This document shows, in pieces, positions 1-35,100 of a stretch of 40,595 nt of DNA (positions within the stretch are counted from its first letter, which is position 1; every line of letters starts with the position of its first letter). Source of the DNA: a virus (Duplodnaviria > Heunggongvirae > Uroviricota > Caudoviricetes); IMG/VR virus record IMGVR_UViG_2541047967_000005, positions 1-40,595 of that record; one strand, given 5' to 3'. The position numbers and the translations under genes are program-made. Under the pieces are notes generated by a model that searched no databases, was not told where the DNA came from, and saw only the letters and a program-made list of their open reading frames with translations.

Positions 1-516
1 ATGAAATTAAAAAAATGTCTTCTGCCTGTGGCAATGTTAGCGTCATTTACTCTGGCAGGATGCCAGTCAAATGCTGATGATCATGCCGCCGATGTTTATC
101 AAACCGATCAACTGAATACCAAACAAGAAACTAAAACCGTTAATATTATTTCCATTCTTCCCGCAAAAGTTGCCGTAGACAACGCCCAAAATAAACGGAA
201 CGCACAAGCCTTCGGCGCGCTTATTGGCGCTGTCGCTGGCGGTGTTATCGGCCACAACGTCGGGTCTGGCAGCAATTCCGGAACGACAGCAGGTGCAGTT
301 GGCGGCGGAGCTGTTGGCGCAGCAGCGGGTTCTATGGTGAATGATAAAACCTTAGTGGAAGGTGTTTCTTTAACATATAAGGAAGGCACCAAAGTGTATA
401 CCTCCACCCAGGTGGGTAAAGAGTGCCAGTTTACGACAGGTTTAGCCGTTGTTATTACCACGACGTATAACGAAACGCGTATTCAGCCAAATACCAAATG
501 TCCTGAAAAGAGCTAA
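1..516 (+). CDS. Glycine-zipper outer-membrane lipoprotein (SlyB/YcfJ-like); host-flanking or cargo
   Basis: ATG at position 1; lipobox LAGC after a signal peptide; Gly-rich zipper (GALIGAVAGGVIGHNVG...) resembling the YcfJ/SlyB family; stop at 514-516. Confidence 0.55.
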   Translation: MKLKKCLLPVAMLASFTLAGCQSNADDHAADVYQTDQLNTKQETKTVNIISILPAKVAVDNAQNKRNAQAFGALIGAVAGGVIGHNVGSGSNSGTTAGAVGGGAVGAAAGSMVNDKTLVEGVSLTYKEGTKVYTSTQVGKECQFTTGLAVVITTTYNETRIQPNTKCPEKS

Positions 517-531
517 TAATCAGGAGGAGTC

Positions 532-1071
532 ATGAAGAAAGTTTTTCTTTGCGCCATCTTAGCCTCCTTAAGCTATCCGGCTATCGCCTCATCATTGCAG
601 GATCAACTCTCGGCTGTCGCAGAAGCGGAACAGCAAGGTAAAAATGAAGAGCAAAGGCAGCATGACGAATGGGTCGCGGAGCGCAACAGGGAAATCCAGC
701 AAGAGAAGCAACGTCGCGCAAACGCCCAGGCCGCGGCTAATAAAAGAGCGGCAACGGCAGCAGCGAATAAGAAAGCTCGTCAGGATAAACTGGACGCCGA
801 AGCCACTGCGGACAAAAAACGCGATCAAAGTTATGAAGATGAGCTACGTAGCTTAGAGATTCAGAAGCAAAAACTGGCGCTGGCGAAAGAAGAAGCCCGC
901 GTTAAGCGCGAAAACGAATTTATCGATCAGGAACTGAAGCACAAAGCTGCGCAAACCGATGTGGTGCAATCTGAAGCTGACGCAAACAGAAATATGACTG
1001 AAGGCGGTCGCGATCTGATGAAAAGCGTGGGTAAAGCAGAAGAGAACAAATCGGACAGCTGGTTTAACTAA
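532..1071 (+). CDS. Secreted coiled-coil protein of unknown function, co-transcribed with the upstream lipoprotein
   Basis: Strong RBS caggaggag 6 nt upstream of ATG 532; N-terminal signal peptide (MKKVFLCAILASLSYPAIA); charged Q/E/K/R/A-rich coiled-coil-like body. Confidence 0.55.
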   Translation: MKKVFLCAILASLSYPAIASSLQDQLSAVAEAEQQGKNEEQRQHDEWVAERNREIQQEKQRRANAQAAANKRAATAAANKKARQDKLDAEATADKKRDQSYEDELRSLEIQKQKLALAKEEARVKRENEFIDQELKHKAAQTDVVQSEADANRNMTEGGRDLMKSVGKAEENKSDSWFN

Positions 1072-3159: not shown

Positions 3160-5622
3160 TCAATTCCCTGTTAATTGCAAAACTTGCTCTTCCAGCTTTT
3201 TAACCCTGCGTCTCATCATCGCAGATTCCAGAATCAGAGCCTCTTCATAACGGATACCGTAACATTCACCAGCCTCGACGGCTTCGCGTACCAGAACCTT
3301 TGTCTGTATAAGTGGGTAAACTCCTGCAGAATGCTCTTCTTCCGTCACATCCCTGTATTCTGCCGGGGTCTCATTCCACTTGTCATAACAGATAAATGCC
3401 AGTCGTGACACATCTATGCCTTCATTCTGAAATACACTGATAACATGCTGCGCAACTGCACCAAAGTGCCATCTTGCTCCGTCTTTACCTTTCACTTCGA
3501 TCCTGTCAAGGTACTGGTATGAAACCCATTCCACTCTTTCCCATGCGTCCAGTATTTTCTCATCAATAACCTCTGGAGCAGTCTTGAAACGCGCATCGGA
3601 CAGCACCGTAAACGCTGACTGGGTAAATCCCCCCGACCATGCACGACCAGCCAACCCAAGAGAATAAGTATTCGTTGTCGATGGTGTCATGGCTGAATCA
3701 GAAAACTGTATATATTCTGAATTTCCAGTAGATATTCGAATATTTCCATTTATTAGCGACATAGTGCCTTTAGTATTATCACTATTGAATAATTTCAATT
3801 GCGAACTTATACCGCCTCCCACAGCCAGAGATACATCGCCTTCAGCAAGCATTCTGAATTTATCTGCAGAAACAAGCGTCTGGTTAGCAAGGTTAAAATA
3901 TTTAACCCACCATTCAAAACGCCCTGACATAGTCCCAACGTACTGACCAAGCGCAGGGACGTGAACAACATTGCTATTTGTAGTGCCGTCTATACTGGAA
4001 ATACCAGTCACCGCTGATGCAGAACTCAGAATATTATTTCTGTCACCCGGATGTTTAATTTCAACAAAGTTCCTGATACACCCTTCCTCGAAGGTAACCA
4101 CGCCGGAAGAACTATACATGGGGAATATTGACGCATAATTACTGCGTGCAGCATCTAAGAAACGAATGGTTGTAGATGCCTGCAGATCTCCTGATTCATT
4201 TTTCCCATCACACCCAGTCATTAGAATATTACTGGCAATATTATTATTTCCCTGAACGGTGACGCCGTGCGCCTGCTTTGCGTCCGATTCAGAGTAATCA
4301 ACCAGCACATCCGAAATCAGGTTACCAGTCCCCTTGCCAACAACTACTGCGGCGTATTTTGGGTTGTTAGCCATTACACTGCTAATGATATTATTCGTTG
4401 GGGCAGTTTCCGTCTCAGTTCCATTGTAAACAACGTGCTGACACTCTTCACCAATAACATTGCTGACAATGTTATATTTTGCTGCTGTTTTAAGTTCCAC
4501 TGCACCAAACTGAGGATAATTTCTGGCTATCACACCATCAATTAGCGTATTTTGCGATGAATCAAAAAGCACACAACCTGCTTTTTTATTATTTGCGAAC
4601 CCTAAATACTCTCCTCTTATATCTCTAACAATGTAACCTGACGGAATACCATTATCCGGATAAGCGATCAAGCTAAATCCTGGTCCTCGCGTATTTGTAA
4701 ATCTGATATTTTTAACCGATACATCATGGCCACCTGAAAATGACACCTGGTGTCCCTGCACACTATCATCTGATTTATTTCCCATAATTGTTAGCGTACT
4801 AAGCATGCCACCATCGGGCATGTTAAAAACCAGATGATTACCATCTCTGTCATACTGTTTTATCGTTCCCCCACCTGTTCCGTACAAGCCACAACGTGAA
4901 AGAGAAACTAAAGATGTATTGAATACCCCTTCCGGAACAAAAACACTGCTAAACGAATGTAATGATTTTGTAAAAGCATCCTTGTTATCATTTAAGATTC
5001 CATTTTGAGCTCCAAAATCCTTAATGCTGACACCATCACGCATCTTATCCTGGAACGTTCTGTATACCGCTCCAGAACCATACTGAATAAACCAACCAAA
5101 ACCACCAATAACTCCGGCGATTGCAGCATCGACATAATTACGCATTGAGCGATTATTTACAGCGTCCTGCTCAAGTGATGGATCGGCAAGGTTAGATATT
5201 CTGTTTTGCTTTGCATCGTAATATTTTGCAAGCAAAGATGGTTTCATCAATGCACGTCTGAACCACCCAAAACATCGCTGGATCAGCATCGTCAGGTAGT
5301 CAAATGCATCCTCATGAACTTCGGGGAAAAATTTTCCCTGATTGCGAAGATCAGTCTCCTGCACCACATCAAGCACACGCTCTATCGTGATTCGCCAGCC
5401 AGCAGCAAGCGGCGACGGAAGAACCACTGCACCGCCACTATAAGTTCCCGCCCCTGTTACCGTATAACCAGCATCCAGCACTAGTTTTGTAACGTTACCG
5501 TTAAGGTCAGACACCTGAACAACCAGGTCGGATTTTTTGAAAATACGGAAGGTATACGGAAATGATGTCGTAACGCCGTTACCTGTGTATTCGTTGTGGT
5601 CAACTTCGGTTGAGACCGTCAT
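3160..5622 (-). CDS. Tailspike / tail fiber with T7 gp17-like N-terminal anchor, central beta-helix domain and C-terminal S74 intramolecular chaperone
   Basis: N-terminus (YTGNGVTTSFPYTF ... RISNLADPSLEQDAV) resembles T7-type tail fiber N-domains; C-terminal ~146 aa (SDARFKTAPEVIDEKILDAWERV ... HFGAVAQHV ... coiled-coil tail) matches the endosialidase-chaperone S74 pattern; RBS ggag upstream. Confidence 0.8.
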   Translation of the reverse strand: MTVSTEVDHNEYTGNGVTTSFPYTFRIFKKSDLVVQVSDLNGNVTKLVLDAGYTVTGAGTYSGGAVVLPSPLAAGWRITIERVLDVVQETDLRNQGKFFPEVHEDAFDYLTMLIQRCFGWFRRALMKPSLLAKYYDAKQNRISNLADPSLEQDAVNNRSMRNYVDAAIAGVIGGFGWFIQYGSGAVYRTFQDKMRDGVSIKDFGAQNGILNDNKDAFTKSLHSFSSVFVPEGVFNTSLVSLSRCGLYGTGGGTIKQYDRDGNHLVFNMPDGGMLSTLTIMGNKSDDSVQGHQVSFSGGHDVSVKNIRFTNTRGPGFSLIAYPDNGIPSGYIVRDIRGEYLGFANNKKAGCVLFDSSQNTLIDGVIARNYPQFGAVELKTAAKYNIVSNVIGEECQHVVYNGTETETAPTNNIISSVMANNPKYAAVVVGKGTGNLISDVLVDYSESDAKQAHGVTVQGNNNIASNILMTGCDGKNESGDLQASTTIRFLDAARSNYASIFPMYSSSGVVTFEEGCIRNFVEIKHPGDRNNILSSASAVTGISSIDGTTNSNVVHVPALGQYVGTMSGRFEWWVKYFNLANQTLVSADKFRMLAEGDVSLAVGGGISSQLKLFNSDNTKGTMSLINGNIRISTGNSEYIQFSDSAMTPSTTNTYSLGLAGRAWSGGFTQSAFTVLSDARFKTAPEVIDEKILDAWERVEWVSYQYLDRIEVKGKDGARWHFGAVAQHVISVFQNEGIDVSRLAFICYDKWNETPAEYRDVTEEEHSAGVYPLIQTKVLVREAVEAGECYGIRYEEALILESAMMRRRVKKLEEQVLQLTGN

Positions 5623-5726: not shown

Positions 5727-5741
5727 TTACCTTTCAGGTAA
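5727..5741. promoter_or_regulatory. Operator-like palindrome TTACC-N5-GGTAA
   Basis: ttacctttcaggtaa; upstream of the LexA box and the 5819 gene; same 16-mer as at 25185-25200. Confidence 0.5.
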
Positions 5742-5798: not shown

Positions 5799-5818
5799 AT
5801 TGCATGGAGAAGATTAAG

Positions 5819-6076
5819 ATGCAGCAGTATCACTATCCACTGGAAGAGGGATTTACCGAAAGGATTCACACGCCGGGAGGCGTCAGGTCACTGGTGGAGG
5901 GATCGCACTTGATGAAATTACTCCGGGATCTCGATAAGGATGGATTTAATGTCGATGGCCCACTTGCCGAACTGACTGCACTGATTAACTACGTCACCAG
6001 CTCACAGATGTCTATGCAGGATCTGCAAACACATCTCGACTATTGTGCCGAACAATTACGAAAACAAACCAGATAA
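5819..6076 (+). CDS. Small SOS-regulated anti-repressor-like protein (C-domain paralogue of the Bro proteins)
   Basis: RBS ggagaag 8 nt upstream of ATG 5819 (the track ORF starts at 5804, inside the RBS); C-terminal motif AELTALINYV ... DLQTHLDY parallels AELTTMFCYIV ... DIQTHAEY of both Bro-N proteins; LexA box directly upstream. Confidence 0.6.
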   Translation: MQQYHYPLEEGFTERIHTPGGVRSLVEGSHLMKLLRDLDKDGFNVDGPLAELTALINYVTSSQMSMQDLQTHLDYCAEQLRKQTR

Positions 6077-6212
6077 GATTTGAAATTACCAATAGGAGTG
6101 CTTATATTTACCTTTGCAGTAAATTTACATCGCACTCCTCTTGTGCCATAGTAATCGGGCACTGGCAAAATCCAGTGCCGGGATTGGCGTCCCGGGTTAC
6201 TAAGTGGCGCAT

Positions 6213-6235
6213 ACCACGCCAGACGTGGTTTTTTT
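6213..6235 (+). terminator. Rho-independent terminator inside the Bro1 leader
   Basis: ccacg ccaga cgtgg followed by seven T; a matching hairpin plus T-run sits at the mirrored position upstream of Bro2. Confidence 0.6.
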
Positions 6236-6391
6236 ATGCGTTAAGCACAGCTATATCCGAATTATGGTGGGCTGGGCAGGGGTCCGAAAGGACGCCGGTA
6301 CCACTTAGGCCGGTACGCCAACCTTGTCCAGTTCACCACCAGTAATTGGCGTTGCGGTGGTGATTAAAATCACTAAGTGGAGATAACCACC

Positions 6392-7102
6392 ATGGCTAAT
6401 GCTCAAACTGCCATCTTCAAATTTGAATCTGTTAACCCTATCCGTTCCATCATTATCGATGGCCAACCATGGTTTGTAGCCCAAGACGTTTGTAGTGCGC
6501 TGCGTATCCAAAACGTCACCCAAGCACTTGAAAAACTGGATGATGATGAAAGGTCTATGTTCAACATAGGGCATGAACATCGTGCAATTTTTGACAGCCG
6601 AGTAAAAGAGATCAACATTATCTCCGAGTCAGGCCTCTACACACTGATCCTCCGCTGCCGCGACGCAGTGACACCAGGCACTATCCCCTACCGCTTTCGT
6701 AAATGGGTTACAGGTGAGGTTCTTCCTCAGATCCGCCGCACCGGAAGTTACATTAAAAACTCGCTCCCGCAGGAAGAACGCATAAAGATGGTTGCCGACC
6801 AGGTAGCCAACGCCACGGCGTCAGCAGTAATGCAGGCGATGAAGATAGAGAACAAAACCTACAGCGCCCCACTGAAGCCCGGCTACCGCAGCCTGATTCA
6901 TTCGCCGTCTGGTGTTCTCGGCCTGACGGAGAACTCACTGCTGATGAATCTGCTGAACCAGTTACAGGAAGACGGGCACGATGTATCGGGCGCGGCGGCG
7001 GAGCTGACCACCATGTTCTGCTACATCGTCGGTGTGAGCAAATGCCTGCGTGATATCCAGACCCACGCGGAGTACATCAACGACAAAGCAGGATTCTTCT
7101 GA
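6392..7102 (+). CDS. Bro-N domain anti-repressor-like protein (paralogue 1)
   Basis: RBS ggag 9 nt upstream of ATG 6392; Bro-N pattern (IFKFESVNPIRSIIIDGQPWFVAQDVCSAL); C-terminal 158 aa identical to the 8373-9059 product. Confidence 0.75.
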   Translation: MANAQTAIFKFESVNPIRSIIIDGQPWFVAQDVCSALRIQNVTQALEKLDDDERSMFNIGHEHRAIFDSRVKEINIISESGLYTLILRCRDAVTPGTIPYRFRKWVTGEVLPQIRRTGSYIKNSLPQEERIKMVADQVANATASAVMQAMKIENKTYSAPLKPGYRSLIHSPSGVLGLTENSLLMNLLNQLQEDGHDVSGAAAELTTMFCYIVGVSKCLRDIQTHAEYINDKAGFF

Positions 7103-7174
7103 CGGGCGGCGGCACAGGGATGTGCCTTTAAATAATTCTGTACAGATTGCAGACCGGGGGTGAATAGCGTACTA

Positions 7175-7189
7175 TTACCTTAAAGGTAA
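7175..7189. promoter_or_regulatory. Operator-like palindrome TTACC-N5-GGTAA upstream of the cargo cassette
   Basis: ttaccttaaaggtaa, about 45 nt upstream of the 7232 start. Confidence 0.5.
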
Positions 7190-7231
7190 ACCTGTTTTTA
7201 TTTTATACCTGTAACTTACCGGAGATTAAAG

Positions 7232-7558
7232 ATGACAAAACTTGGATTCGTGATGAGAGGTCCGGTAAGAAGCGGAACTCATGCAAAGCGTAGCAAGAGT
7301 CGTATTTTTACTGGTAAGGTTGTAGCACGTAAATCAGCTATTGGCTCGTTCAATAGTGAAAATGCGGCATTGCGCCATATTTTTATCAGCACAAAGCCAA
7401 GAGCATCCGCTGATGTGCATACAATGTCTATTCCTATCACAAAGAATATCAAGCGGATAAAAAAGCTCTCATCTGCAGAATCAAAAGAGATATCTTTCCG
7501 CCAGCTTAACTCATTAGAAACGCATATGAAGGAAGAGGAATTCGATGTTTTTGAGTGA
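7232..7558 (+). CDS. Basic 108-aa protein of unknown function; first gene of the low-GC two-gene cassette (candidate antitoxin/immunity partner)
   Basis: RBS ggag 7 nt upstream; Lys/Arg-rich N-terminus, acidic C-terminus (EEEFDVFE); AT-rich with AGA codons; 3' end overlaps the next gene by 14 nt. Confidence 0.5.
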   Translation: MTKLGFVMRGPVRSGTHAKRSKSRIFTGKVVARKSAIGSFNSENAALRHIFISTKPRASADVHTMSIPITKNIKRIKKLSSAESKEISFRQLNSLETHMKEEEFDVFE

Positions 7559-8057
7559 GTATAGCGGGAAGGTTATACCTACTGGTGAGTTTAAAACTGA
7601 TGACTTTCTGATTTCGCTAAAAGATGCTTTTAAACAACACTGGCGTCATGGTCATCATCCTGATCTGGGAAAAGATACTCTTTTTGAAAGACCAGACGAA
7701 GTATTAGGCTTCCATCTCAGAAAGGTTCATGTCAATATTGGTGAATATGCATCATATTCATACTCATGTACTGAACAGTGTTGGGATGAGTGGTCATATG
7801 GATTGATTGATGAACAAGGAAATTACAGGCCAAAACCAACCAGTAACGCATATCTCATATATGCAGTCAATGAAATAAGAGATGCAGCCTTACTAGCTTA
7901 TTGGGACCCGCCCGCACACACCAAAGCTAACGCAAAAGTTTGGATGGATTCCGTATTGAATTTCACAAAATTATTTCATGAACGAACGAATACAGCTCCA
8001 CTTAGTAGAAATGTTTATCCGTGGGATTATTCGTACAAATCCAAAAAGCCTGCATAG
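7545..8057 (+). CDS. 170-aa protein of unknown function; second gene of the cassette (candidate toxin/effector, possibly YafO-like)
   Basis: Strong RBS ggaagagga upstream of ATG 7545; translationally coupled to the upstream ORF; low GC; motifs (LFERPDEVLGFHL ... AYLIYAV ... ALLAYWDPPAH) loosely recall YafO-family toxins from memory, not verified. Confidence 0.5.
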   Translation: MFLSEYSGKVIPTGEFKTDDFLISLKDAFKQHWRHGHHPDLGKDTLFERPDEVLGFHLRKVHVNIGEYASYSYSCTEQCWDEWSYGLIDEQGNYRPKPTSNAYLIYAVNEIRDAALLAYWDPPAHTKANAKVWMDSVLNFTKLFHERTNTAPLSRNVYPWDYSYKSKKPA

Positions 8058-8138
8058 TAGTTTTTTATGGACGAAACAAAAGTCAGTGCTACACTCATTG
8101 ACGCCACATTGAGGTGGCTTATAGATGGAAATTTCACA

Positions 8139-8300
8139 ATGAAAAAAGCATTTGCTGCACTGTTCGTTTTGTTGTCTCTGGTAGCTTCAACTCAGGCCTT
8201 TGCCGGTCGTTGTCAGCACGACAGCGACACTGCTGCTGACGGCTCCCGCTGCGGTGGGCGTTCTGCGGATTCCCGCCCTGGCGGCGGTGGCATTCGTTAA
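8139..8300 (+). CDS. Small secreted Cys/Gly/Arg-rich peptide (~53 aa precursor), unknown function
   Basis: Internal ATG followed by a signal peptide (MKKAFAALFVLLSLVASTQAFA) and ~31-aa mature part; weak RBS, so the call is tentative; the track ORF starts at 8067. Confidence 0.35.
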   Translation: MKKAFAALFVLLSLVASTQAFAGRCQHDSDTAADGSRCGGRSADSRPGGGGIR

Positions 8301-8306
8301 AAACAA

Positions 8307-8322
8307 GGCCGCGAAAGCGGCC
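8307..8322. terminator. Bidirectional hairpin terminator between the convergent cassette and Bro2
   Basis: ggccgc gaaa gcggcc (GNRA loop); A-run upstream on plus equals T-run on minus; terminates Bro2 on the minus strand. Confidence 0.55.
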
Positions 8323-8323
8323 T

Positions 8324-8335
8324 GTGACATGTCAC
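8324..8335. repeat. 12-bp palindrome GTGACATGTCAC (copy 1 of 3)
   Basis: Exact palindrome immediately next to the bidirectional terminator, in the unique segment between the inverted-repeat arms. Confidence 0.7.
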
Positions 8336-8372
8336 GATAGTTTCGTTTTGCACATCCCTGTGCCGCCGCCCG

Positions 8373-9059
8373 TCAGAAGAACCCTGCCTTGTCGTTGATG
8401 TACTCCGCGTGCGTCTGGATATCACGCAGGCATTTGCTCACACCAACGATGTAGCAGAACATGGTGGTCAGCTCCGCCGCCGCGCCCGATACATCGTGCC
8501 CGTCTTCCTGTAACTGGTTCAGCAGATTCATCAGCAGTGAGTTCTCCGTCAGGCCGAGAACACCCGACGGAGAATGAATCAGGCTGCGGTAGCCGGGCTT
8601 CAGTGGGGCACTGTAGGTTTTGTTCTCTATCTTCATCGCCTGCATTACTGCTGACGCCGTGGCGTTGGCTACCTGGTCGGCAACCATCTTTATGCGTTCT
8701 TCCTGCGGGAGCGAGTTTTTAATGTAACTTCCGGTGCGGCGGATCTGAGGAAGAACCTCACCCGTAACCCATTTACGAAAGCGGTAGGGGATAGTGCCTG
8801 GTGTCACCGCATCGCGGCAGCGGAGGATCAGTGTGTAGAGGCCTGACTCGTTGATAATATTGGTTTCGCCTTGACGGCCTAAGTTAAATTTAGCCCTTTC
8901 ATCATCATCAAGAGATTTTATTGACATAGTGGGGTTTGTCAGTTGAAGAGCTTTAATAACGTCTTTGGCAACAAACCAAGGATTTCCATCAATAACAATG
9001 GCTCGAATGGTTGCCTCTGATTCAAAATGAAAAACAGATGGGGTTACGTTAGCAGTCAT
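8373..9059 (-). CDS. Bro-N domain anti-repressor-like protein (paralogue 2)
   Basis: Internal ATG (MTANVTPSVFHFESE...) with RBS aggtga; Bro-N pattern (IDGNPWFVAKDVIKAL); C-terminal 158 aa identical to Bro1. Confidence 0.75.
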   Translation of the reverse strand: MTANVTPSVFHFESEATIRAIVIDGNPWFVAKDVIKALQLTNPTMSIKSLDDDERAKFNLGRQGETNIINESGLYTLILRCRDAVTPGTIPYRFRKWVTGEVLPQIRRTGSYIKNSLPQEERIKMVADQVANATASAVMQAMKIENKTYSAPLKPGYRSLIHSPSGVLGLTENSLLMNLLNQLQEDGHDVSGAAAELTTMFCYIVGVSKCLRDIQTHAEYINDKAGFF

Positions 9060-9325
9060 AGTGATCACCTTTGTAGTTAGGTTAATCACCACTACCGACG
9101 CCAATCGGTTGGTGGTGAACTGTGCAGGGTTGGCGTAACCGGCTACAAAGGACCCGGCGCACCTTTCGGTGCCCCCACACAGCCCACCATAGAATAGGTG
9201 CGCTTTACACATAAAAAAACCGCTTATGCGGCATATGTGCCTCTGTAGTAACCCAGGACGCCAATCCCGGCACTGGATTTTGCCAGTGCCTGATTACTAT
9301 GGCACAAGAGGAGTGCGATGTAAAT

Positions 9326-9487: not shown

Positions 9488-9841
9488 GTGCCATTCCACG
9501 GCGCAGAACTTTATGTTGTCAATCACAACGGAGAACCGTACACCCCAATGAAACCTATCGTTGAAGGCATGGGTATGGATTGGGCTTCACAGTTTACGAA
9601 AATGAAGCAGCGGTTTAAAACCTGCATTGTGAAAATCACAATGCAGCTTCCTGGGGATGAACAGCGCCGTGAGATTATTTGTTTGGCACTTCGCAAACTT
9701 GCTGGCTGGTTGCAAACCATCAGCCCTAACAAAGTCCGCCCTGAAATCCGCGAAAGTATTGAAACATCAACCGTGTCGATATCGACACGGTTGATTATGA
9801 CGGTAACTTATTGCCGTGTGTCCTATTTCTCCCACCACTAA
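9488..9841 (+). pseudogene. Remnant of a P22 Ant-type anti-repressor (N-terminal domain only)
   Basis: GTG start with no RBS; FHGAELYVVNHNGEPYTPMKPIVEGMGMDW ... LRKLAGWLQTISPNKVRPEIRE resembles the Ant N-terminal domain, then degenerates and stops after ~117 codons; no C-terminal domain in any frame. Confidence 0.45.
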
Positions 9842-25163: not shown

Positions 25164-25200
25164 TTGACATTTAACGCGCGAATTATTACCTTTCAGGTAA
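25164..25200 (+). promoter_or_regulatory. Candidate promoter (-35 TTGACA) with operator-like palindrome TTACC-N5-GGTAA
   Basis: ttgaca at 25164-25169; ttacctttcaggtaa at 25186-25200; lies in a 400-bp non-coding region upstream of the tRNA. Confidence 0.4.
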
Positions 25201-25522: not shown

Positions 25523-25599
25523 GTGGCATTAGCTCAGTTGGACAGAGCAACCGCCTTCTAAGCGGTTGGTCGCAGGTTCGAATCCTGCATGCCACGCCA
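25523..25599 (+). tRNA. tRNA-Arg (anticodon UCU), argU-like
   Basis: 77 nt folded by hand: 7-bp acceptor stem gtggcat/atgccac, D stem gctc/gagc, anticodon stem accgc/gcggt with loop cttctaa (TCT), T arm gcagg-ttcgaat-cctgc, 3' GCCA. Confidence 0.85.
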
Positions 25600-34381: not shown

Positions 34382-34966
34382 ATGAAAAGTATCCAGGACG
34401 TCCGCAGGCAAAATCTCAACGACTTGATCGACCGTGAATTCAATGGTGTTCAGACGCGGATGGCAGAAAAACTTGGAACTCAGGCAAATCTGGTAAACCG
34501 CTGGGCTCTTGGCAAGAAGGTTATCGGCGACCAGGTTGCGCGAAAAATTGAAGCTGCCGCCAATAAACCCCGTAACTGGCTTGATATCGATCGCTCGCTT
34601 TCTCAGGAAGGTTTTCAGCCTGTCGGCCCAAGCGACATTGGTCAGCTGGCAGCTCACAACCTGGAACGCTGGATGAGTGAAAGCCGCGACCTTTCAACTC
34701 AGGGAAAACTTCACCGCGCATCCGGCGTCGCCCAGGTGACAATAAGCCGCCTGTTAAACAATGAGGTCAGCGTTTCCATTTCCACCCTGGAGAATGTTGC
34801 ATCTGCATTCGGGCGTCACGGATATGAACTACTGATTCATCCGCATGACCCTGCGACCATCAACTATGATCGCTCGCGCTACGCATTGTTACCCGAAACC
34901 GAGAAAGCAAAGATCGAAAGTTACATTGAATTTGTCATCAACCAGAACGAAAAAAACAAACAATAA
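34382..34966 (+). CDS. Prophage repressor-like protein with two HTH segments and no LexA-type peptidase domain
   Basis: 194 aa; HTH-like segments GVQTRMAEKLGTQANLVNRWALGKK and GVAQVTISRLLNNEV; no S24 autopeptidase motifs seen; divergent from the Cro-like gene. Confidence 0.5.
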   Translation: MKSIQDVRRQNLNDLIDREFNGVQTRMAEKLGTQANLVNRWALGKKVIGDQVARKIEAAANKPRNWLDIDRSLSQEGFQPVGPSDIGQLAAHNLERWMSESRDLSTQGKLHRASGVAQVTISRLLNNEVSVSISTLENVASAFGRHGYELLIHPHDPATINYDRSRYALLPETEKAKIESYIEFVINQNEKNKQ

Positions 34967-35057: not shown

Positions 35058-35100
35058 TTGACATCAAACCATATACGCATAATTATTACCTCAACGGTAA
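35058..35100 (+). promoter_or_regulatory. Candidate early rightward promoter (-35 TTGACA) with operator-like palindrome over the -10/start region
   Basis: ttgaca at 35058-35063; AT-rich -10-like cataat/ataatt; ttacctcaacggtaa at 35086-35100; drives the small ORF and the RecE/RecT operon. Confidence 0.5.

Follow-up and report, generated by a model that had tools for sequence, protein, structure and literature searches.

A putative YafO-family toxin-antitoxin module with a phage-type operator in a phiV10/epsilon15-type prophage

Introduction

The YafN-YafO pair of Escherichia coli K-12 is encoded in the dinB-yafN-yafO-yafP operon and combines a toxin of the Pfam family YafO_toxin (PF13957) with an antitoxin of the Phd/YefM type (PF02604). 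YafO is one of the 13 families of the RelE/ParE "BECR" fold (PMC11980606). In the YafO family the antitoxin gene comes before the toxin gene (PMC11980606, Table 1), and some RelE/ParE systems have the reverse order (PMC11980606). Here, we describe two overlapping genes, A and B, found in a 40,595-nucleotide (nt) stretch of viral DNA of the class Caudoviricetes (IMG/VR record IMGVR_UViG_2541047967_000005, positions 1 to 40,595), which is called the window throughout. We read A-B as a divergent YafO-family type II toxin-antitoxin (TA) module with a previously unannotated antitoxin, and we give this reading a probability of about 0.7.

Two systems of phage immunity are also useful for comparison. 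In phage P1, the C1 repressor acts at scattered single operators and the immI region has the order c4-icd-ant; the P1 operators are asymmetric 17-mers. In the paaR2-paaA2-parE2 system of the cryptic prophage CP-933P, the antitoxin PaaA2 is not known to have a DNA-binding domain. PMC8630535 describes paaA2-parE2 as co-transcribed with a CI-like repressor and on in the immune state, which places a RelE/ParE-superfamily pair within a prophage immunity network and not under classical antitoxin autoregulation.

An earlier note on this DNA, made by a model from the letters alone, had pointed to an AT-rich unique segment between two inverted repeats. It had suggested that two coupled genes and a secreted mini-protein in this segment, with a promoter and operator of their own, form a TA or defence system, perhaps an undescribed one.

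Results and Discussion

Genes A and B are a strictly conserved pair

Open reading frame (ORF) A (7232-7558, plus strand, 108 amino acids, aa) and ORF B (7545-8057, plus strand, 170 aa) overlap by 14 nt. A Shine-Dalgarno sequence, GGAG, is located at 7221-7224, 7 nt 5' of the ATG of A, and another, GAGGA, at 7535-7539, ahead of the ATG of B, which confirmed the coupled gene layout and the good ribosome-binding site described in the earlier note. That note had also suggested looking for the two genes as a unit in other genomes. Starting from either protein, 19 A-B loci were reached in six genera (E. coli, Salmonella-, Serratia- and Enterobacter-type prophages, Klebsiella and Yersinia). All 19 had a homologue of A (104-116 aa) 5' of a 170-aa homologue of B, with the identical 14-nt overlap.

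The loci fall in four kinds of setting, one of which is a non-prophage chromosomal site. There, on Enterobacter chromosomes (loci L025-L027, 2830-3900), an intact A-B pair stands alone between molybdopterin-oxidoreductase and alcohol-dehydrogenase genes, with no prophage. In loci L011-L013, the pair is found in prophages of another type, 3' of an antiterminator gene. A evolved about 3-5 times faster than B: across the same loci, A was 27-49% identical where B was 62-82% identical, and the ratio of nonsynonymous to synonymous substitution rates (dN/dS) was 0.27-0.56 for A and 0.04-0.07 for B, with B under strong purifying selection. A-B is, thus, a strictly conserved, autonomous, co-directional and co-inherited mobile pair.

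The two genes together have a G+C content of 39.7% compared to 48.5% for the window, which puts them in the lowest 0.8% of windows of the same size. AGA makes up 7 of their 16 arginine codons, and a phage tRNA-Arg(UCU) is encoded at 25523-25599; the earlier note had mentioned both the AGA use and the tRNA. A specific link between this codon use and the tRNA was rejected, since the tail genes are equally rich in AGA.

B resembles YafO in sequence and predicted fold

B was matched to PF13957 with E = 9.5e-4 and 19.7 bits over profile positions 7-100 of 101, and the exact protein is named "type II toxin-antitoxin system YafO family toxin" in RefSeq (WP_000479990.1). The resemblance to YafO that had been noticed previously was, therefore, upheld. 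B is also 33% identical to gp44 of phage TL-2011b (E = 2e-27), which scores 26.3 bits against PF13957, above the cut-off of the family, and one close homologue (P0009) has a precomputed PF13957 match. When 1.84 billion representative proteins were searched exhaustively with a profile, only 57 relatives came up. We aligned 45 sequences, consisting of 42 full-length matches from this search, the B protein of the window, K-12 YafO and TL-2011b gp44. PF13957 was matched at E <= 0.01 by 30 of the 45, F29, G42, H62 and H125 were invariant (including in K-12 YafO), and D44, P50, W80 and Y106 were at least 90% conserved. The motifs common to YafO and B are F..(Y/H)W, G-(K/R)-D and H-(V/I)-H, together with a third-strand aromatic residue and an AH/PH histidine. 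At 170 aa compared to the 132 aa of YafO, B is the longer protein. It has an insertion of about 20-35 aa (approximately residues 64-98), in which a CW..W motif is conserved, and it is extended by about 25 aa at the C-terminus.

The predicted structure of B has a RelE/HigB-like fold and was matched by Foldseek to HigB, RelE and YafQ structures. A Foldseek search of BFVD with the same model gave no meaningful match, and searches of PADLOC, NCBIfam and the PDB with the B sequence gave nothing useful. Solved toxins of the RelE/ParE superfamily, from HigB2/HigBA2, RelBE and YafQ-DinJ, are only 6-16% identical to B and belong to other Pfam families. The placement of B as a YafO-type RelE/ParE toxin is consistent with the family list in PMC11980606. 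We conclude that B belongs to the YafO family as a divergent, long-form toxin with a RelE/ParE fold and is, as such, a putative mRNA endoribonuclease. The toxin family is, therefore, known and annotated, and the suggestion of an undescribed system did not hold; the small partner alone is unannotated.

A is most likely the antitoxin

A is annotated as a hypothetical protein on at least 1,000 public contigs that carry its exact sequence, and it falls in a PHROG of unknown function. No match to A was found in Pfam, NCBIfam, PADLOC or the PDB. Both a Pfam search and an AlphaFold2 model indicated that A lacks the Phd/YefM domain of YafN; YafN itself matches PF02604, and a BLASTP comparison of A with YafN found nothing. 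The A family, which comprises 23 proteins, is conserved at both ends, whereas the middle is hypervariable and probably disordered. The conserved N-terminus reads MTKLGF..KRRK, and residues 1-76 are strongly basic with 16 K/R compared to 2 D/E. The conserved C-terminal stretch of about 32 residues reads ISAxxSxELSFRMLNxLDxRMKEExFDAFE* and forms an acidic helix at about residues 81-106, which ends in ...ISFRQLNSLETHMKEEEFDVFE in the window. This helix was the only confident part of the AlphaFold2 model, with no confident fold for residues 1-75. The description of A as basic with an acidic tail was, thus, accurate.

The tail of A resembles the tails of other YafO partners. With hhalign, the last 34 columns of A were placed on the last 34 residues of a 163-aa partner of another YafO-like toxin, here called the A2 type (E = 3.2e-4), and A 66-107 was placed weakly on YafN 52-95 (29% identity, E = 0.025). 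The acidic-aromatic ends are MKEEEFDVFE* in A, MTDDDFNDFKE* in YafN and NEDDWTDFVE in an ORF 5' of a Pseudomonadales YafO homologue. K-12 YafO was also used as the query in the locus search, but the 8 loci that it returned were too few for a YafN profile.

Since A is strictly paired with B, evolves faster, has a confident helix only at its C-terminus and has a tail like those of two other YafO partners, the comparisons suggest that A is most likely the antitoxin. Rapid evolution, probable disorder over most of the chain and a conserved C-terminal helix for toxin binding make up the usual signature of a type II antitoxin, here minus the Phd/YefM domain of YafN. The pair resembles YafN-YafO in having the antitoxin gene first. 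It differs in this missing domain, in its phage-type operator and in its 14-nt overlap, compared to the 2 nt between yafN and yafO.

Another possible explanation is that A-B is not a TA system at all. In that case B would be an inactive YafO-like domain put to another use, and A an unrelated basic nucleic-acid-binding protein that is merely co-transcribed. The score of B below the Pfam cut-off, its large insertion and C-terminal extension, the basic first 76 residues of A and the missing family assignment of A would all fit this explanation. We regard it as very unlikely because positions that B has in common with K-12 YafO do not vary within the family, purifying selection on B is strong, every one of the 19 loci has the 14-nt overlap and the tail of A is like the tails of other YafO-like toxins' partners. 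Overall, the YafO-family match of B, the RelE/HigB-like model and the conserved pairing favored the TA interpretation given in the earlier note.

Related cassettes with other partners

Two other kinds of cassette in related prophages were compared with A-B. In TL-2011b, the slot that holds A-B in the window is occupied by gp45-gp44, of which gp44 is named a YafO family toxin in RefSeq. The flanks are about 97% identical to the window and include the promoter and operator on the left and the small-peptide gene on the right. As in A-B, a small basic partner gene overlaps the gene of a homologous toxin. The partner is only 59 aa and unlike A, and gp44 (181 aa) passes the Pfam cut-off, which B does not.

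The second kind, A2-B2, was found in EC.W1-9, locus L014 and E. coli N21 and encodes proteins of 139-163 aa and 168 aa. B2 is 47% identical to B, and the C-terminal 34 residues of A2 align with the tail of A, although A2 is longer and has an unrelated N-terminal part. These cassettes are found in the same prophage type as A-B and also beside antirepressor genes, but in another slot, on the far side of the first antirepressor gene (ant1), between a small gene by the tailspike gene and the first antirepressor promoter. Their coordinates are 11-926 (minus strand) in L018, 1417-2404 (minus strand) in L014 and 6426-7365 (plus strand) in L020; L014 has both cassette types.

A phage-wide operator overlaps the putative cassette promoter

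A putative sigma-70 promoter is located at 7147-7175 on the plus strand, with a -35 hexamer TTGCAG (7147-7152), a 17-nt spacer and a -10 hexamer TACTAT (7170-7175). Its conservation suggests that it functions as the cassette promoter. The stand-alone Enterobacter copy has identical hexamers at identical spacing with a different spacer sequence, and L003 and L011 have an equivalent TTGnnn-17/18-TAnnAT beside the operator. The operator itself, at 7175-7189 (TTACCTTAAAGGTAA; TTACCTT-A-AAGGTAA), is a perfect 7+1+7 palindrome that shares one base, its first, with the end of the -10 hexamer.

The palindrome reported earlier is, therefore, real, but it is not the cassette's own. With one mismatch allowed, TTACC-N5-GGTAA occurs at 15 sites in the window compared to 0.58 expected, a number that no shuffle reached. 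The 15-nt sites start at 5495, 5727, 6108, 7175, 9326, 25186, 28335, 28353, 31919, 31981, 33927, 34264, 34312, 35024 and 35086, mostly on or beside the promoters of nearly every transcription unit. Phage phiV10, which has no cassette, carries 14 such sites at corresponding places. In the window, the sites cluster around an HTH_3 repressor gene (34382-34966), whose 194-aa product has two helix-turn-helix (HTH) domains. Three are between this gene and the divergent gene, and others are at the flanking early promoters. At five promoters, namely the cassette promoter, the two antirepressor promoters and those near 25186 and 35086, the operator begins with the T that ends the -10 hexamer. An operator abutting the -10 hexamer in this way is in a repressing position. 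The cassette operator, which overlaps -10/+1, is the most symmetrical copy of the phage set.

Related prophages of several genera have the operator together with the cassette. In Enterobacter, where the pair stands without a prophage, both half-sites have decayed (TGGCCCAAAGGTTAT) and the -35 and -10 hexamers are kept. Binding of the palindrome by A was considered and rejected because phiV10 has the same set without the cassette and because the operator decays where there is no prophage. A has no detected DNA-binding domain, and the sole palindrome at the cassette promoter belongs to a phage-wide set that includes the repressor region. From these two observations we infer that the prophage repressor controls the cassette. 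The operator binder would be a core phage protein, most simply the immunity repressor, and not A or A-B. TTACC-N5-GGTAA is probably the scattered operator set of the Uetakevirus (phiV10/epsilon15-like) repressor; we found no description of it in the literature searched. As a separate observation, the tRNA-Arg(UCU) gene is about 320 nt 3' of a TTGACA-type promoter with an operator (25186-25200) abutting its -10 hexamer, and may also be repressor-controlled.

The window resembles P1 in having operators over most transcription units and a C4-type RNA 5' of its antirepressor genes. It differs in that its operators are 15-bp palindromes and its repressor has two HTH domains. Like yafNO, which is transcribed with dinB (PMC3105422), A-B seems to be tied to damage- or induction-responsive transcription. 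In its apparent place in an immunity network, A-B is similar to paaA2-parE2 of CP-933P, but A-B is predicted to be off in the immune state and its toxin is of the YafO and not the ParE type.

Extent of the module

Comparison of the loci showed that the transferable unit runs from about 100 nt 5' of A, including the promoter, operator, leader and conserved ribosome-binding site, to a terminator that spans the stop codon of B. The self-contained mobile module is, thus, 7147-8066 and consists of the promoter, operator, gene A, gene B and a decayed terminator. The ends of B were compared in the window, L003, L006, L007, L008, L011, L014 and TL-2011b. In the relatives, the terminator is GCCCGC-ATA-GCGGGC followed by a T-run, and its position across the stop codon accounts for the conserved KKPA* end of B. 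The window has only a remnant of this intrinsic terminator at 8048-8066 (plus strand). Loss of its right arm makes read-through probable, so that cassette transcription, as read from this decay, probably continues into 8139-8300. The terminator has also decayed in the Enterobacter chromosomal copy, as has the operator.

The small gene at 8139-8300 (plus strand) encodes 53 aa and belongs to phrog_14503. Its product has a signal-peptide-like N-terminus, as the earlier note had suggested, with cleavage predicted between AFA and G, and its predicted mature part of 31 aa is rich in Gly, Arg and Asp and contains two Cys. It is named "transmembrane anchored protein" in the sources, and searches of NCBIfam and the PDB with the ORF yielded no helpful match. 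The gene stays where A-B is replaced by other cargo, in TL-2011b, phiv142-3 and EC.W1-9 (the protein is identical in phiv142-3 and EC.W1-9), and it is missing beside A-B in L006 and L014. It is, therefore, a separate insert and not part of the TA module as had been proposed. Its G+C content is 57%, and the AT-richness claimed for the whole segment applies to A and B only. The supposed bidirectional terminator that follows it (8306-8323) has a T-run on the minus strand only and is the intrinsic terminator of the leftward gene ant2; in phiV10 it carries a terminator annotation.

Proposed mechanism and points against it

Taken jointly, these results lead us to read 7147-8066 as a mobile type II TA module in which B is a YafO-type toxin, A is its antitoxin and the prophage repressor sets transcription, with the probability already given. 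A would be made first, with B translationally coupled to it through the 14-nt overlap. By homology to E. coli YafO, B would cleave mRNA and halt translation. A would neutralize B by docking its conserved acidic C-terminal helix (about residues 81-106) on the toxin, and, by analogy, the basic and largely disordered remainder of A may make it protease-labile. Since the prophage repressor and not the antitoxin would set transcription, the cassette is expected to be low or off in the lysogen and to be transcribed along with the early genes and antirepressor operons once the prophage is induced or a cell is infected.

Several points weigh against this reading. The toxicity, binding and RNase activity come into it by inference only. 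The score of B is below the Pfam gathering cut-off of 25 bits for PF13957, and direct comparison of B with K-12 YafO by BLASTP and hhalign found no significant match, so that the membership of B in the YafO family depends on transitive links and common motifs. The B model is of moderate confidence, and its Foldseek E-values were not significant. A and YafN have tails that are only weakly similar (E = 0.025), in a single comparison. When a hidden Markov model of the A tail was run against about 2,200 background ORFs from all fetched loci, the A2-type partners were the top hits outside the family, but with E = 0.11 and 0.73, and YafN was not recovered. The 59-aa partner in TL-2011b, gp45, did not align with A and had no detectable similarity to it. 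The cassette promoter is weak, with 3 of 6 and 4 of 6 consensus matches, and was not called by a consensus scan. The immunity repressor is a candidate for the operator-binding protein, named from sequence, and PMC9782041, on Uetakevirus regulation, defines no operators. There is also a logical tension: if the promoter is shut off once lysogeny is set, decay of a classical labile antitoxin should leave the toxin free at that point.

A variant that could accommodate the operator is that A-B is not a self-regulating TA module but a repressor-gated RNase switch. The antitoxin would have given up DNA binding, and the global repressor would time both a YafO-like toxin and its brake. We offer this variant tentatively, at well below even odds.

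The layout also bears on a role in the lytic program, in which B, as an early RNase gated by the repressor, would break down host mRNA upon induction or infection, and A would act as a brake on dosage or timing and not as a classical addiction antidote. The position of the operator against the -10 hexamer is that seen at the early promoter at about 35060-35100 and at the antirepressor promoters, related prophages of several genera carry the operator along with the cassette, and K-12 yafNO, too, belongs to a damage-induced operon that includes dinB (PMC3105422). However, a non-prophage chromosomal site whose operator has decayed still carries an intact module that is subject to purifying selection, and the module is absent from most Uetakevirus genomes, which makes it dispensable for lytic growth. 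This role is, therefore, doubtful.

Prophage setting, inverted repeats and cargo slot

Almost the entire window is one phiV10/epsilon15-type prophage (genus Uetakevirus) adjoining yfgH-yfgI. E. coli MLI109 is 99.8% identical to the query region, and its flanks are annotated with the same phage genes. The cassette region is located between the tailspike gene and the genes for internal-virion (injection) proteins and holds two convergent Bro-N antirepressor genes. The inverted arms at 6608-7125 and 8350-8867 are 518 nt each and 97% complementary, and they enclose a unique segment of 1,224 nt (7126-8349), in agreement with the 1.2 kb reported earlier. The left arm (plus strand) consists of the C-terminal half of ant1 (coding sequence about 6392-7102; Pfam match to Bro-N with E = 1e-19) and a terminal hairpin (7111-7126). 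The right arm (minus strand) corresponds to the C-terminal half of ant2, the other Bro-N antirepressor gene (ORF 8373-9212, minus strand). Both arms are flanks outside the module, and the inverted repeats are simply two paralogous antirepressor genes with a common C-terminal domain.

Flipping of the unique segment between the 518-bp repeats was considered and rejected. The native junction was found in 78 complete E. coli genomes, and an artificial inverted junction was found in only one, strain N21, which has a different gene mosaic. No inversion or deletion polymorphism of the cassette region was detected in this junction search of 5,426 E. coli genomes. These data are relevant to the possibility that A-B is an addiction module that stabilizes the prophage or locus, so that loss or rearrangement kills the cell. 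PMC8630535 offers a precedent, since it reports PaaA2-ParE2, a RelE/ParE-superfamily pair within a prophage immunity network, to be addictive and proposes that it limits rearrangements; the 518-bp inverted repeats around the cassette could also promote rearrangement. The lack of inversion or deletion polymorphism, with the sole inverted junction due to a different mosaic, speaks against this possibility. In addition, if the repressor keeps the promoter off in the lysogen, little complex would be left for killing after loss. We consider an addiction role unlikely.

The slot that holds A-B is, by comparison of related phages, a variable accessory hotspot, in line with the hotspot described in the earlier note. 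Besides the gp45-gp44 pair of TL-2011b, it contains an unrelated gene pair with a membrane protein in EC.W1-9, two tiny ORFs in phiv142-3 and only one tiny ORF in phiV10, where both A-B and the small-peptide gene are missing. Of the complete E. coli genomes, about 10% matched part of a 7100-8370 query, and the A-B cassette was present in 69 of 5,426. Among 50,697 phage records, homologues of B were found in TL-2011b and EC.W1-9 only and homologues of A in none.

The place of A-B in such a hotspot would fit anti-phage defence of the lysogen through abortive infection, as had been suggested. The lysogen would hold a basal level of A-B complex, a superinfecting phage would stop host expression, labile A would decay and B would cleave mRNA. 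RelE/ParE-superfamily modules are discussed as defence toxins (PMC11980606), and low G+C content and mobility fit an accessory gene gained by the prophage. However, neither A, B nor a 77-aa extended ORF containing the 53-aa peptide had a match in PADLOC-DB v2 at E <= 1. An operator over -10/+1 predicts repression in lysogeny, when a defence gene must be on. We found no evidence for a defence role, which fits poorly with a repressed promoter, and its likelihood is low.

Other features near the cassette were also observed. Upstream of each Bro-N antirepressor gene there is an IsrK-family RNA (68-72 bits) and a C4-type antisense RNA (66-80 bits), at 6159-6235 and 6260-6343 (plus strand) and at 9213-9289 and 9108-9194 (minus strand). 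These duplicated IsrK/C4 units have the arrangement of the P1/P7 immI antisense control, here in a podovirus prophage. A stand-alone 90-aa ORF at 5804-6076 (plus strand) is homologous to the common C-terminal domain of the antirepressors (phrog_450, phrog_1760). This third copy of the domain has its own operator-tagged upstream region (5727-5741). A truncated P22_AR_N-type antirepressor gene at 9488-9841 (plus strand) is a pseudogene in RefSeq. A perfect 30-bp palindrome at 9766-9795 (ATCAACCGTGTCGAT/ATCGACACGGTTGAT) lies exactly at the end of its homology to full-length Ant and may be a recombination scar.

Implications

The biological role of the proposed TA module may be in the lytic program, in stabilization of the locus or in purely selfish persistence, all of which are candidates. 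If the repressor-gated variant were true, toxin activity would be tied to the lysis-lysogeny switch, and could lead to shut-off of host mRNA at induction or to a burst of free toxin as repression is set up or lost. The acidic-aromatic tail would then be a portable "YafO-neutralizing" peptide carried on unrelated N-terminal parts in YafN, A and A2.

Our analysis gives a probable antitoxin function to a protein that is annotated everywhere as hypothetical. Long-form YafO-like toxins pair with at least three types of partner. A short C-terminal neutralizing tail seems to be all that two or more of these types have in common with each other and, weakly, with YafN. This common tail is a testable minimal inhibitor peptide for a toxin family that, according to PDB searches, has no solved structure. 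As a by-product, the likely operator set TTACC-N5-GGTAA of phiV10/epsilon15-like phages was defined. Compared with paaA2-parE2 (PMC8630535), A-B would be a second example, with opposite polarity, of a RelE/ParE-type TA pair wired into a prophage immunity circuit.

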